IMG/VR virus record: IMGVR_UViG_2778261642_000012
Span: 1-20,069 of that record
Strand: one strand, 5' to 3'
From: a virus
Taxonomy: Duplodnaviria; Heunggongvirae; Uroviricota; Caudoviricetes
Length of the DNA stretch: 20,069 nucleotides
This document shows positions 14,401-20,069 of this stretch, one piece after another. The first letter of the stretch is position 1, and every line of letters begins with the position of its first letter. The position numbers were made by a program.

Positions 14401-17400
14401 AATATTGCCAGGAGCTTAGGTGTTGATATTGCTGATCTCTTTACCTCAGACCTCAAAAGTAATACTGTATGTAAAAACAGTATTAGTGAGGATGTTGCGC
14501 AGGTGAAGGATGTATTCCGTATTGAAATGCTGGATGTCAGTGCCAGTGCGGGAAATGGCCTTATCCAGGGCGGTGATGTCATTGATGTGATTCATGCCAT
14601 TGAATACAGAACTGATAATGCTGTATCGATGTTTGGTGGACGACCAGCAAATCACATTAAAGTTATCAACGTTCGTGGGGACAGTATGTGTCCAACCATT
14701 GAGCCAGGAGATCTCATCTTCGTTGATATCAGTATCAATCAGTTTGATGGGGATGGTATATATGTATTTGGTTTTGATGATAAAATTTACGTCAAACGAC
14801 TGCAAATGATACCTGATAAACTGCTGGTAATTTCTGATAATCAGATTTACCGCGAATGGGGAATTACCAGCGAAAACGAACACCGGTTTATGGTCTTTGG
14901 AAAGGTCTTAATCAGTCAGTCACAGACCCTTAAGCGACACAATTAACCCCCTACCTCAACATCAATTAGCCACCAGAAGGTGGCTTTTCATTACCTACCA
15001 AATTGCATATCTCGCAACAAAACACTTGCATAATGCGCAACTTCATTTTATCTTTCTTTCCAGACCTACAAACAAGGTACTAACAAAATTTGGTTGTAAC
15101 ACGGCGTATGGCACATGCGTCGTTAGCGGTCTGGGGACGTTAAAGGGGACAATCCACTCCTTGCTCGGGCAAACAAACCAGGTAGCCGGAATGTGCAAGT
15201 CAATGATGATGCTGATAAGACGCCTAACCAGCGCGGCGATCCGGTTTGACGCCTGGGAAGAGACCAGGGTGCAACGATGAGGGCATTTATGGAACCGCGA
15301 CAAAGTGTGGTGCCGTAACTGGCTAAGTGCTCTCAGCGTTGTGGTAATCCGCGAAATGGCGCGGCGGTAAGTATGGCGGGGTTACTCTTTCCCCGTTGAG
15401 GACACCGGATTGTCAGGCTGACCATACGCCTGAGTGACAATCCCGCCACAACAGCCACTGCTTTGGCGGTACCAGTTTGTACACTTGCTTCCGGCTGGTA
15501 CCGCTCTTTTTACAAAACAGAGAAGAGCATCACCGGACGACGGGCTCATAACCCAATCCATCCGGGCGGCTGTCACCGCAGGTGTTCTTCTCTGTTTTGT
15601 GGAGAAACTAACCGACCTTGCAGGGTCGATATGATGAGGAGCAGCAAAATGGCTAGCGAACGCAGTACTGATGTGCAGGCATTTATCGGGGAGCTGGACG
15701 GCGGCGTATTTGAAACCAAAATCGGCGCAGTTCTCAGTGAAGTCGCTTCCGGTGTGATGAACACGAAAACCAAAGGTAAGGTCTCACTCAACCTGGAAAT
15801 CGAACCGTTTGATGAGAACCGTGTGAAAATAAAACATAAACTCTCATATGTTCGCCCGACTAACCGCGGGAAAATTTCCGAAGAAGACACCACCGAAACG
15901 CCGATGTATGTCAATCGCGGTGGTCGCCTGACTATTCTGCAGGAAGACCAGGGACAATTACTGACTCTTGCCGGTGAACCTGACGGAAAACTCCGCGCAG
16001 CAGGTCATTAATATCGTTTTTAATTAACTGATTATTTATCTCATCACTGAATATTTTATATAGTGAGGACTGATTATGTCTCAGAACTTAGACGCAACCG
16101 CAATTAATCAAATCCATGCCCTTATTTCTGCTCAGGGTGTTAATGAAATTATCAGTAAGATTGGTGCCGATGCTGTGGCATTGCCTGAGAATTTCCGCAT
16201 TCATGATCTGGAAAAATTTAATTTAAATCGTTTCCGTTTCCGTGGTGCGCTTTCCACTGCCAGCATCGATGACTTTACCCGTTATTCTAAAGATCTTGCA
16301 GATGAAGGCACCCGCTGCTTTATCGATGCCGATAATATGCGTGCCGTCAGTGTGCTTAACCTGGGTACTATTGATGAACCAGGTCACGCAGATAACACCG
16401 CCACTCTCAAACTGAAAAAGACAGCACCGTTCTCTGCTCTGTTGTCTGTTAATGGCGAGCGTAACTCCCAGAAGTCACTGGCAGAATGGATTGAAGACTG
16501 GGCCGACTACCTTGTGGGCTTTGATGCTAATGGTGACACCATTCAGGCAACCAAAGCGGCTGCGGCAGTCCGTAAAATCACAATTGAAGCAAACCAGACC
16601 GCTGATTTTGAAGACAATGACTTCAGCGGCAAACGCTCCCTGATGGAGTCTGTCGAAGCGAAAACCAAAGACATTATGCCAGTGGCATTTGAATTTAAAT
16701 GCGTTCCGTTTGAAGGCCTGAAAGAACGTCCGTTTAAATTACGCCTCAGCATTATCACTGGCGATCGTCCTGTACTGGTTCTGCGCATTATTCAGCTGGA
16801 AGCGATGCAGGAAGAAATGGCTAACGAATTTCGTGATCTGCTTGTTGAGAAATTCAAAGACAGCAAAGTAGAAACCTTTATTGGTACTTTCACCGCCTGA
16901 TTTCATTACTGCAAATGCCCCTGCGGGGGCATTTATGGAAACGTAATTAACTCAATAATCACCGGATGGTGAGAGCTTCCTTTTAGCAGAATTCAGCGCG
17001 GTGCAGCGCATATAAAGTGGAGAACGAAATGTCATTTATTAAAACTTTTTCTGGGAAGCATTTTTATTATGACAAGATAAATAAAGACGACATCGTGATT
17101 AACGATATCGCAGTTTCCCTTTCAAATATCTGTCGCTTTGCAGGACATCTTTCACACTTCTACAGCGTCGCCCAGCATGCGGTGCTTTGCAGCCAGCTGG
17201 TACCGCAGGAATTTGCTTTTGAAGCGTTAATGCATGATGCAACAGAAGCATATTGCCAGGACATCCCCGCTCCACTGAAACGCCTTCTTCCTGACTATAA
17301 ACGGATGGAAGAAAAAATAGATGCCGTAATCCGTGAGAAATACGGGTTACCCCCGGTTATGAGCACGCCTGTGAAATATGCCGATCTCATCATGCTGGCA

Positions 17401-20069
17401 ACCGAACGCCGCGATCTCGGGCTTGATGATGGCTCTTTCTGGCCTGTACTGGAAGGCATCCCGGCAACAGAGATGTTCAACGTGATTCCACTGGCACCGG
17501 GCCATGCCTACGGGATGTTTATGGAACGTTTTAACGAGTTATCGGAGTTACGCAAATGCGCATGAATGTTTTCGAAATGGAAGGGTTTCTTCGCAGGAAA
17601 TGTGTACCGCGAGATCTGAAAGTGAACGAAACAAATGCTGAGTACCTGGTACGTAAATTCGATGCGCTTGAAGCTAAATGTGCGGCACTGGAAAACAAAA
17701 TAATACCAGTGTCAGCTGAACTGCCACCAGCAAATGAAAGTGTTCTGTTATTTGATGCTAACGGAGAAGGCTGGCTAATTGGCTGGCGTTCTCTCTGGTA
17801 CACCTGGGGACAAAAAGAAACCGGAGAATGGCAGTGGACATTTCAGGTCGGGGACCTTGAAAACGTCAATATCACTCACTGGGCAGTAATGCCAAAAGCA
17901 CCGGAGGCTGGAGCATAATGACCACATTTACCAATAAAGAACTGATTAAAGAAATCAAAGAACGAATCAGCAGCCTAGAGGTTCGAGACGATATTGAGCG
18001 CCGTGCTTATGAAATTGCTCTGGCATCGCTGGAAGAGGATCCGGTGGCATGGCTGCATTCAGACAATGGCTTAGGTATTCCGGCAATAACCAGGAGTAAA
18101 AACATTGCTGACAGTTGGTTATCAAAGGGCTGGTATGTTCAGCCGCTATATATAGCCAAGCCAGTGCCGGTGGTGCCAGATGCTCGTCCATCTTTAAATA
18201 ATGGCATAGTCGGTTTTGATGAAGGCTGGAACGCCTGCCGCGCTGCCATGCTCTATGGTGCCGTACCTGCAAGCAAGGCTTACAAGTTGCCACAAACGCA
18301 GTTTAAACAGGTTGCTGACCTCTACGAAATGCAATTTGATGACGGTCGCACTTGTGCCTTTCACACTGATGCGCAAAAGGCTGTGCAATGGCTTCAGGCG
18401 TTCGACGGAAACAGGGTTCAGGAATACGTTAAGCTGGAACGATTGCAGAACGCACTGTCTGGCAACTCTCCGGTAACTCCGGATGGTTGGGTTATGGTGC
18501 CGAAGAGACTAACAGCCGAGAACGGCGCTAAGGGGGCGCTATCCGGTGAATTTTCAGAAACTACGTTTATAAGCTGCCTGGAATGCTTTGGCGATGATGA
18601 TTGCGATACCTGTGACGGAAGCGGACGTATTGAAATTAAAGTGCCAGTCACGTGGTCGACCATAAAATCTATCTGGGATAAAGGTATCGAGTATTTTGCA
18701 GCAAAACCATCACAAGAGGTGAAGTGATGAACAACTTAATGATCGACCTTGAGACGATGGGGAAAAATAAGGATGCACCGATCGTTTCCATTGGCGCGGT
18801 GTTCTTCACTCCAGAAACCGGAGACATCGGACAAGAATTCTATACGGTTGTTAGCCTGGACAGTGCTATGAAGCAAGGAGCTACACCTGACGGCGATACC
18901 ATCCTGTGGTGGTTGAAACAGAGCTCTGAAGCACGAGCTGCAATCTGTATTGATGATACTTTGTCGATCAGCGATGCACTCTCTGAACTGAGCCATTTCA
19001 TTAATCAGCATGCAGACAATACAAAATATTTAAAAGTCTGGGGTAACGGGGCCACCTTCGACAACGTAATTTTACGTGGAGCTTACGAGCGAGCAGGACA
19101 AATCTGCCCGTGGGCGTACTGGAATGACCACGATGTACGCACGATCGTTACGCTTGGGCGTTCCATCGGATTCGACCCAAAAATGGACATGCCTTTCGAT
19201 GGCGAACGGCACAACGCCCTGGCTGATGCCCGTCATCAGGCAAAATATGTTTCCGCTATCTGGCAGAAACTAATTCCTGCCACCAGCACAGAATTATGAT
19301 TTTCCCGGGTGCAGCCGGTTTTGATGGAGAAAATTATGAACACCTTGTTTTTACTGATGGCTGAATTCAATACCCCAAACATTGAGCTGTCAGCTGTATG
19401 CCAAAAGTATTTCGGTATGAGCCCTAACACAGCAGAAGCGAAAGCAAATGCATGCCAATTGCCGCTCCCGACTTATCGTGTTGGTACATCACAGAAAGCA
19501 AAGCGCTGCATCAACATTCAGGATCTTGCTGAATATATAGATAAACGGCGTGAAGAAGGCAGAATTGAATGGGAGAGGGTAAGAACAAATAGGAAAATAA
19601 ATAACTAATCTCACAAAAAACCCGCTTCGGCGGGTTAGTTTTCATCTTTATAATTCTGGGCAATTCGCGCCAGATAGCTCATCACATCATGTTTTCTTGC
19701 TTTTTCATGTGCATCGGGATACATAATAGCAATGAGTGAATATTTATTCTCATAAAGCTCACCTTGGACATACACAAGACAAGCATCATTATCAGGATCA
19801 CCTTTCTTGCAGACCCTATCCGGTTGTGGAAGTTTCTCGGGAAACTTGTTTGGCGGTAGACAAAGATGGATATGCATCAACCCAGCCCGAAAAGCACCAT
19901 AGGGCTGAGTATACGCAACGTCCCTACCGAAATAATGCGGAAGCTCACCGGTTGCTTTGTATCTCTTGAAATCATCAATGATAGAAGACTCTAGCTCCGG
20001 GAATTTGAGAAAAACTTCATCAAAAAATTCAGCTCTAGTTTCTGGATTAATAGAGACTTCTAGATGCAT

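Follow-up and report, generated by a model that had tools for sequence, protein, structure and literature searches.

The stretch of DNA analysed here (the window; 20,069 nucleotides (nt), IMG/VR virus record IMGVR_UViG_2778261642_000012) is the right half of a lambdoid prophage, and the element in question is its early-left operon at 15649-19608, which consists of seven open reading frames (ORFs), all on the + strand downstream of the repressor gene cI. The gene order is cI, the leftward operators and promoter (OL/pL), a structured leader, yfdP-yfdQ-yfdR-yfdS, a YfdT-like mosaic gene, a DEDDh exonuclease gene and xis. All seven ORFs were confirmed at their annotated coordinates, and the domain calls of the initial annotation (DUF2303, HD domain, DUF551, DEDDh exonuclease, excisionase-like protein) held, as did its statement that recombination genes of the exo/bet/gam type are missing from the operon (Pfam, PHROGs and NCBIfam). 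The gene content is ordinary and shows no statistical anomaly. With a probability of roughly 60%, we consider the locus to be an ordinary early-left (pL) operon of a lambdoid prophage of the SfV/mEp460/CPS-53 type, belonging to the class that combines no recombination (Rec) module with a high number of Chi sites. The genes pointed out earlier and the missing Rec module are already known; the new item is a conserved structured RNA upstream of the operon. The features needed for the argument are as follows.

14254-14946, + strand: cI, repressor gene of the S24-peptidase/helix-turn-helix (S24/HTH) type, divergent from cro
15003-15040, no strand assigned: two OL operator-like sites, TTGCATATCTCGCAA and TTGCATAATGCGCAA, with TTGCN7GCAA at 15003 and 15026
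15026 (-35, TTGCAT) and 15049 (-10, TATCTT), + strand: putative pL, overlapping the second operator-like site; weak hexamers, read by eye
15093-15285, long form to about 15344, + strand: conserved structured RNA motif, ~190 nt (long form ~250 nt), 32 pairs in 7 helices, 96% of alignment cells paired against 30-45% when slid
15466-15510, + strand: terminator-like hairpin, GGCGGTACCAG...CTGGTACCGC and then TCTTTTT, between the RNA motif and yfdP
15649-16011, + strand: yfdP, 120 amino acids (aa), 99.2% identical to K-12 YfdP, phrog_204
16076-16900, + strand: yfdQ, 274 aa, DUF2303 (Pfam E = 8e-92), 98.5% identical to K-12 YfdQ
17029-17565, + strand: yfdR, 178 aa, HD-domain protein annotated as 5'-deoxynucleotidase (K-12 YfdR binds DnaA), 99.4% identical to K-12 YfdR
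17556-17918, + strand: yfdS, 120 aa, DUF551 (Pfam 22.2 bits, cut-off 22), 99.2% identical to K-12 YfdS
17918-18727, + strand: 269-aa mosaic protein with a YfdT-like N-terminus, a variable segment, a shared centre and a C-terminal four-cysteine module
18727-19299, + strand: DEDDh 3'-5' exonuclease, Rv2179c-like (PF16473, E = 7.5e-76, 254 bits against a cut-off of 27)
19336-19608, + strand: PrtN-family excisionase-like protein (PF11112, E = 1.5e-24, 86.3 bits against a cut-off of 24.2; phrog_1300 excisionase, E = 3e-40)
19619-19636, no strand assigned: bidirectional terminator-like hairpin from the terminator scan, closing the operon and common to the convergent yafO gene
17724-17731, - strand: Chi site, GCTGGTGG on the - strand inside yfdS
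19280-19287, - strand: Chi site, GCTGGTGG on the - strand inside the exonuclease gene
11171-12025, - strand: replication module, an O-like initiator (HTH_36/DnaD_N) and a 74-aa ORF

The first four genes are near-identical to the yfd genes of K-12 (98.5-99.4%, BLASTP, full-length amino-acid alignments). The 120-aa protein, left unassigned in the initial annotation, is K-12 YfdP; it had no match in the local Pfam copy, and its homologues carry a precomputed newer Pfam accession, PF27127. The 269-aa protein, likewise left unassigned, indeed gave no Pfam family on the whole protein or on any segment (segments scanned to E <= 5), but its residues 1-42 match the N-terminus of YfdT at 93%, the remainder being a different and longer mosaic. 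YfdR matches phrog_318 ('dNMP phosphatase') with E = 4e-110 and has the HD pair at residues 69-70. Its score of 24.3 bits against the YfbR-like Pfam family falls below the cut-off of 25.9, and against the NCBIfam 5'-deoxynucleotidase equivalog it reaches 19.9 bits where the cut-off is 122. By its sequence, then, YfdR is a member of the HD superfamily and not a YfbR equivalog, in line with reported low nucleotide affinities: YfdR is described as structurally homologous to YfbR, with affinities for nucleotides that are much lower, and its function is called elusive (PMC4776307, citing Zimmerman et al. 2008).

None of the seven early-left ORFs matched a family of the exo/bet/gam, RecET, Erf, Sak, Abc or single-stranded DNA-binding protein (SSB) kind in Pfam, PHROGs or NCBIfam. 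Lambdoid Rec genes sit in the pL operon or in the nin region. In the stretch between the O-like gene and Q, RusA is the only recombination-related gene. Chi (GCTGGTGG) is the commonest octamer of the window, with 14 sites (3512, 5720, 7691, 7820, 8091, 9395, 10291, 10647, 11457, 13034, 13310, 13656, 17724 and 19280) where 0.64 are expected, and none of 100 shuffled sequences reached 14. Eleven of the 14 lie on the - strand, which is the strand of the pR and late genes, and these include both sites within the oppositely transcribed operon. As these two keep the favoured orientation, selection appears to act on orientation, which argues against codon usage as the source of the enrichment. The second most common octamer is TGCTGGTG, the ranking also published for LLS and P1. 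The replication module has neither a helicase nor a helicase loader beside its O-like initiator.

This combination has been described before. Zheng et al. (Genome Res 2025, PMC12315714) surveyed lambdoid phages of enterobacteria and found 22% of them to be without a Rec module, a group that they named the LLS functional type. They noted yfdP, yfdQ and a gene for an HD phosphatase in its early-left operon, and showed that Chi is overrepresented in such phages and that these benefit from RecBCD. The missing recombination genes, which the initial annotation had noted, are thus a published trait that is explained by Chi enrichment and host RecBCD (PMC12315714). The window falls into the published class because it has no Rec-type family, 14 oriented Chi sites, O-only replication and yfdPQR genes near-identical to those of K-12, and it shows the signature of the RecBCD-dependent 'no Rec module, high Chi' class. 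The agreement extends to details: as in LLS, there is no strand-annealing protein (SAP), nuclease of a Rec module, SSB or anti-RecBCD function in the early-left operon while the yfdP, yfdQ and HD-phosphatase genes are present, replication is O-only with no N homologue (both described for LLS in PMC12315714), and Chi is the commonest octamer, mostly in one orientation, with TGCTGGTG as runner-up. The whole-genome Chi count and terminal clustering of LLS are not comparable with a 20-kb window, and the LLS proteins were set against ST64B (76-90% identical) rather than against this prophage in the paper (PMC12315714). Unlike the LLS description, the window phage has a DnaQ-type exonuclease gene next to xis.

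Over its whole length, the segment 13300-20069 shows 98.3% identity to PhiR40_1 and PhiR55_1; by coverage, 93-100% of it is found at 97-98% identity in PhiR40_1, PhiR55_1 and PhiR47_1, and large parts are common to mEp460, cdtI, 2H10 and many Shiga toxin 2 (Stx2) phages. SfV and the Stx2c-converting phages belong to the same group of closest known phages. A prophage of E. coli B1W1 matches the stretch 15400-19700 with 100% identity, and 3553 of 5426 complete E. coli genomes contain some part of this stretch. A YfdQ-based search of related loci returned only E. coli prophage loci that are at least 99% identical. In mEp460 and the Stx2 phages the part from cI to yfdR is common with the window, whereas the segment from yfdS to the exonuclease is mosaic; between these two positions, five different small genes are found in mEp460, among them an ead/Ea22-like gene and one for a 250-aa DUF551 protein. 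The K-12 prophage CPS-53 (KpLE1) has the same order yfdP-yfdQ-yfdR-yfdS, followed by a fifth gene whose product shares 42 YfdT residues with the window protein, but YfdT is there a short form of 101 aa compared to the 269-aa mosaic. CPS-53 has also lost the immunity region, so that yfdO abuts yfdP, and the covariance model of the leader RNA motif gave no match there; the window has both. Finally, CPS-53 has the TorI excisionase and no DEDDh exonuclease, whereas the window has a PrtN-type protein and a DEDDh exonuclease.

The RNA motif in the leader between OL/pL and yfdP is, with the biochemistry of the YfdP-YfdQ pair, the most novel material of the locus. The motif was found by blastn of the leader, which matched unrelated phages: in mEp390 and in lambdoid phages of Klebsiella it follows closely on the repressor gene, while it lies between a tRNA gene and the next downstream gene (ban in P1) in P1, P7 and D6, and immediately 5' of tRNA-Arg in epsilon15-like Uetakeviruses. 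In an alignment of 13 sequences, 32 base pairs were paired in 96.9% of cells, compared to 31-41% with the 3' partners slid; 12 pairs showed compensatory changes, and the covariation score was 0.379 against at most 0.098 in the slid controls. By an exact-pattern scan, at least 119 IMG/VR contigs carry the motif, as do 22 species-representative genomes; 21 of these genomes are Enterobacterales, and in the remaining one, a metagenome-assembled genome labelled Bacillota, it lies on a contig of 1.7 kb. With a covariance model, 82 full-length copies (66 distinct) were collected, in which 96.1% of cells were paired and 14 pairs (164 cells) were compensatory compared to at most 8 pairs and 28 cells in slid controls, in an alignment that is biased towards the structure since it was fitted to the model. 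The frequent G-U pairs establish the + strand, the direction of pL, as the RNA strand. Among 120 occurrences, yfdP/Q lay 292-830 nt downstream in 41, an S24 repressor gene lay upstream on the same strand in 32, and a tRNA gene was nearby in 28. No Rfam family matched the motif at gathering score or at E <= 1, and a literature search on it found nothing.

The motif starts ~30 nt after the putative start of pL and is followed by the terminator-like hairpin at 15466-15510, and no convincing N-like gene was found in the 700-bp leader between cI and yfdP. In PhiR55_1 a 64-aa ORF on the - strand of the leader is annotated as hypothetical, and the + strand reading that ends at 15634 is labelled an rdgC fragment by PGAP. 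By analogy, the motif may act as an antiterminator like put. What it has in common with the put RNA of HK022 and the putL-like RNA of HK639 is its position only, in cis just downstream of a putative pL in a lambdoid phage that has no N gene, and upstream of a terminator-like hairpin; a put-type mechanism has been guessed for LLS (Zheng et al., PMC12315714). The two differ in build, as HK022 put is ~70 nt with two stem-loops while the window motif has a multi-helix fold of ~190-250 nt, and no match of the motif to the HK022 and HK639 immunity regions was obtained with blastn-short, nhmmer or the covariance model. The window contains no second, putR-like copy. Unlike put, the motif also has tRNA genes as neighbours, namely in P1-like and epsilon15-like phages, and these tRNA-adjacent copies leave room for a processed small RNA or another role. 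The hypothetical gene gp37 of mEp460 (4745-5113, opposite strand) overlaps the motif at 4800-4980 and is probably a mis-called ORF. One IMG/VR contig (2791355294_000005) has two motif copies, at 3983-4161 and 4789-4966, ~800 nt apart on the same strand.

That the genes form an operon under repressor control is supported by the operator-like sites. The pattern TTGCN7GCAA has five matches in the window, where 0.85 would be expected; three of these fall in the two spacers of the immunity region, one in the cro-cI spacer (14219) and two just after the cI terminator (15003 and 15026). The pL hexamers are our own assignment and were not listed by a consensus promoter scan. The hairpin at 15466-15510 is missing from the terminator scan list, the scan pattern allowing loops of 3-8 nt only; the segment 15455-15520 folds at -21.8 kcal/mol, and 15440-15650 folds much better than shuffled sequence (z = -5.7).

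The yfdP-yfdQ pair is kept in phages of Escherichia, Klebsiella, Vibrio, Pseudomonas and Xylella/Xanthomonas. The distant pairs were located by tblastn of YfdQ against phage records and then with a YfdP profile, whose matches (hmmsearch E 1e-25 to 1e-31) immediately precede the DUF2303 gene in three phages: 34E29.1 of Vibrio, LPPA56 of Pseudomonas and Usme of Xylella. In the distant phages the neighbours of the pair are often genes for SSB, a DnaQ-type exonuclease or a recombinase (Vibrio 34E29.1, Xylella Usme, VvAW1), and in the Stx phage P13374 a complete gam-RecT-exo-SSB module lies upstream of the DUF2303 gene. Since the pair occurs both next to such DNA-transaction genes and alongside a complete Rec module in P13374, it is associated with early DNA-transaction genes and is no substitute for recombination genes. 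In P13374, an O104:H4-outbreak-type Stx2a phage, the yfdP homologue at 5591-5937 is annotated as two separate ORFs (63 and 45 aa) followed by an intact DUF2303 gene, and represents either a frameshifted pseudogene or a recoding site. Other Stx2a phage records have a DUF2303 gene with 52.6% identity to the window YfdQ, the same value as in P13374. The DUF2303 homologue gp10 of Burkholderia phage JC1 was found to be virion-associated by mass spectrometry (PMC9144972), which is unexpected for an early-operon protein.

The initial annotation had proposed structure-based annotation of the 120-aa and 269-aa proteins. A predicted model was obtained for YfdP, while the 269-aa protein was followed by homologue coverage only. 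The predicted folds of YfdP and YfdQ match nothing of known function, and fold searches with both models gave no match to single-strand annealing proteins (SSAP) of the Rad52/RecT/Erf kind, to Gam or to OB-fold SSB. A homologue of YfdQ has an experimental entry, PDB 9o7m (E = 1.4e-44 over residues 16-273), which contains 36 chains and for which a literature search found no paper; YfdQ probably forms a large homo-oligomer. YfdP probably docks to a partner via a C-terminal tail that is conserved but predicted to be disordered.

Noguchi and Katayama (2016, PMC4776307) found that YfdR binds domain I of DnaA in a Phe46-dependent manner and competes moderately with DiaA and DnaB. In the same work, multicopy yfdQ and yfdR together with yfdS or yfdT suppressed over-initiation mutants and inhibited initiation at oriC in the wild type, and the authors proposed a phage role for the yfd cluster analogous to that of lambda P (PMC4776307). 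Taken with these data, the operon would, as its main task after induction, take over the host at the level of replication by shutting down oriC initiation. In a phage with an O-like initiator and no helicase loader, the shutdown may also free DnaB for the phage origin, and the O-only replication module may thus be functionally linked to YfdR, the competitor at DnaA and DnaB. Recombination that makes concatemers would be left to host RecBCD-RecA at the phage Chi sites, YfdP and YfdQ would act together as a phage-conserved pair, Xis would direct excision, and the DEDDh exonuclease and the mosaic DUF551 and Cys-cluster proteins would be swappable accessories of an exo-xis-type region.

Several observations weigh against assigning the operon this role. 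The link between host takeover by YfdR and the O-only replication module is one that we infer ourselves. The data on replication inhibition come from multicopy genes in K-12 and not from an inducible phage, and the authors themselves allow for an artefact of overexpression; yfdP was not needed for the phenotype, deletion of the K-12 yfd cluster gave no phenotype, and in pull-downs YfdQ, YfdS and YfdT had no high affinity for DnaA or YfdR, so that the role of YfdQ is genetic only (PMC4776307). Moreover, the window contains only 20 kb of the prophage, and a Rec gene could, strictly, lie elsewhere in it.

The map position of the yfd genes invites another explanation, namely that YfdP-YfdQ, perhaps with the DEDDh exonuclease, are an unrecognised module for recombination or DNA-end processing that replaces exo/bet/gam. 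Lambda Red (exo-bet-gam), Rac RecET and P22 Erf/Abc are located at the very place of the yfd genes, mid-way in the pL operon between the immunity region and xis. Such a role would also agree with the SSB, DnaQ-type exonuclease and recombinase neighbours in 34E29.1, Usme and VvAW1, and with the weak sensitivity to methyl methanesulfonate (MMS) that PMC4776307 reports for K-12 yfdQ mutants. However, the yfd genes have no sequence-family or fold similarity to those systems and co-occur with such modules elsewhere: DUF2303 is found with complete Rec modules in P13374 (gam-like, RecT, exo and SSB), in JC1 (RecT and YqaJ) and in ArgO145, and Zheng et al., citing the ArgO145 case, judged the yfd genes unlikely to be hidden recombinases (PMC12315714). 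The oriented Chi enrichment argues for dependence on RecBCD, not for its replacement or inhibition. YfdQ and YfdP were rejected as recombinases on the basis of the negative fold searches and the co-occurrence with full Rec modules, and we consider this explanation as a whole unlikely. The initial annotation had considered a different one plausible, in which the HD phosphohydrolase and the exonuclease form a module acting on the nucleotide pool or against host defence, for example by degrading dNMPs, dNTPs or cyclic or linear oligonucleotide signals. Indeed, the catalytic residues of both enzymes are intact, both would be expressed early from pL, NCBI and PHROGs label the HD protein as a 5'-deoxynucleotidase, and DEDDh nucleases act on short oligonucleotides. 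Against a nucleotide-pool role stand the much lower nucleotide affinities of YfdR than of YfbR and its 19.9 bits, compared to the required 122, for the equivalog; the sole experimental function of the gene cluster is DnaA binding by YfdR and the multicopy inhibition of oriC initiation (PMC4776307). As a unit, the two genes are not adjacent, having two mosaic genes between them, and the exonuclease is sporadic near xis and int, with a different gene content in between in mEp460 and P13374. A PADLOC search gave only a weak, generic DEDDh match (E = 2e-5), which is a weak test as its models are for defence and not for anti-defence, and no experimental link to a defence system was found in the literature on yfdP, yfdQ, yfdR and DUF2303. 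The anti-defence claim is thus unsupported, and the two-enzyme module seems improbable to us.

It is also conceivable that the yfd genes mainly benefit the lysogen as stress-tolerance 'morons'. Deletions of yfdQ or yfdS in CPS-53 were reported to raise sensitivity to H2O2 (Wang et al. 2010, as cited in PMC4776307). The stationary-phase regulator SrsR binds and activates the K-12 yfdPQ operon, and the cluster is widespread in E. coli and has persisted in a prophage that is decayed. In the window, however, the operon stands behind a repressor-controlled OL/pL and a terminator-like hairpin and should therefore be silent in the lysogen. In the deleted arrangement of CPS-53, the K-12 SrsR boxes lie in the spacer between yfdO and yfdP, which is unlike the leader found here, and the P-Q pair is also present in Vibrio and Xylella/Xanthomonas phages. 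A benefit mainly to the lysogen therefore appears quite improbable, and we keep to the reading of an ordinary pL operon of the RecBCD-dependent class.

The distal part of the operon is consistent with an exchangeable region. The family of the 269-aa protein is very large, with more than 6800 matches among 8000 candidates scored. Nearly all of the 120 closest relatives have its centre (about residues 110-190); 37 of the 120 keep the C-terminal Cys module (CLEC...CDTCDGSG) and most others have DUF551 in its place; judged from these sequences, the C-terminal module is swappable. The C-terminal 74 residues gave no match to DnaJ_CXXCXGXG at E <= 5, so the resemblance of CDTCDGSG is a local one. In PhiR55_1 the labels 'Ea22' and 'EaE' are based solely on position and annotation: there was no Pfam match to Ead_Ea22 for YfdS or the 269-aa protein at E <= 0.01, nor for segments of the latter at E <= 5. 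The exonuclease has all its motifs (D7-x-E9, D112 and H162-x4-D167) and matches PDB 8kel/8ken, 'Exodeoxyribonuclease', with E = 3.5e-9; sporadic DnaQ-type nuclease genes near int are known from lambdoid phages and are not counted as Rec nucleases (Zheng et al. 2025, PMC12315714). The gene for the predicted excisionase lies at the int-proximal end of the pL operon. The remaining features of the window are listed below.

On the - strand: DUF1441 small-terminase-type gene, Rz, lysozyme and P21-type holin
On the - strand: four tRNA genes and the Q antiterminator
On the - strand: DUF968, KilA-N and RusA genes, small LexA-DNA-binding-domain protein, Dam and PerC
On the - strand: Rha/Ash, CP76-type cII and cro
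14968-14985, no strand assigned: bidirectional terminator-like hairpin just after cI, from the terminator scan
15512-15600: inverted repeat with 25-nt arms, then a third hairpin before yfdP
15485-15634, + strand: C-terminal rdgC remnant according to the PGAP annotation of the identical stretch in strain B1W1, overlapping the inverted repeat
19635-20069, - strand: YafO-family type II toxin gene, convergent with xis; the window ends exactly at the yafO start codon

The rdgC remnant was not accepted, as Pfam gave no confirmation of RdgC on the 66-aa ORF. In PhiR55_1 and strain B1W1 a gene for a 179-aa partner lies just upstream of yafO and is followed by a dusA fragment, which suggests that the prophage end and the attachment site are close by. 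The four tandem tRNA genes, at 5332-5641 (- strand) between Q and the lysis genes, are Gly(TCC), Thr(TGT), Lys(TTT) and Met(CAT). Rfam matches to C4 antisense RNA (12807-12894, - strand, 83.6 bits) and to the Hfq-binding RNA isrK (12919-12995, - strand, 67.9 bits) fall in the 5' part of the long Ash/Rha-domain ORF at 12204-13355. The arrangement suggests an RNA-controlled antirepressor unit like immI of P1/P7, and also that the 383-aa Ash/Rha ORF is over-called at its N-terminus.

The window provides a clean and independent example of the published class without Rec and with high Chi, and the YfdP-YfdQ pair is a defined target for experiments. A more far-reaching proposal, which we hold only tentatively and regard as doubtful, is that the leader RNA represents a processive antiterminator of a new, cis-acting class that works like put but has no sequence relation to it, and that would switch on the pL operons of N-less lambdoid phages and the tRNA/ban units of P1-like and epsilon15-like phages. 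It would be linked with a two-protein machine of YfdP and YfdQ, the latter as a large oligomer, that together with YfdR would redirect DnaA and DnaB to phages having an O-type initiator only. If the motif is an antiterminator, it would explain early-gene expression in the N-less phages of this large class.

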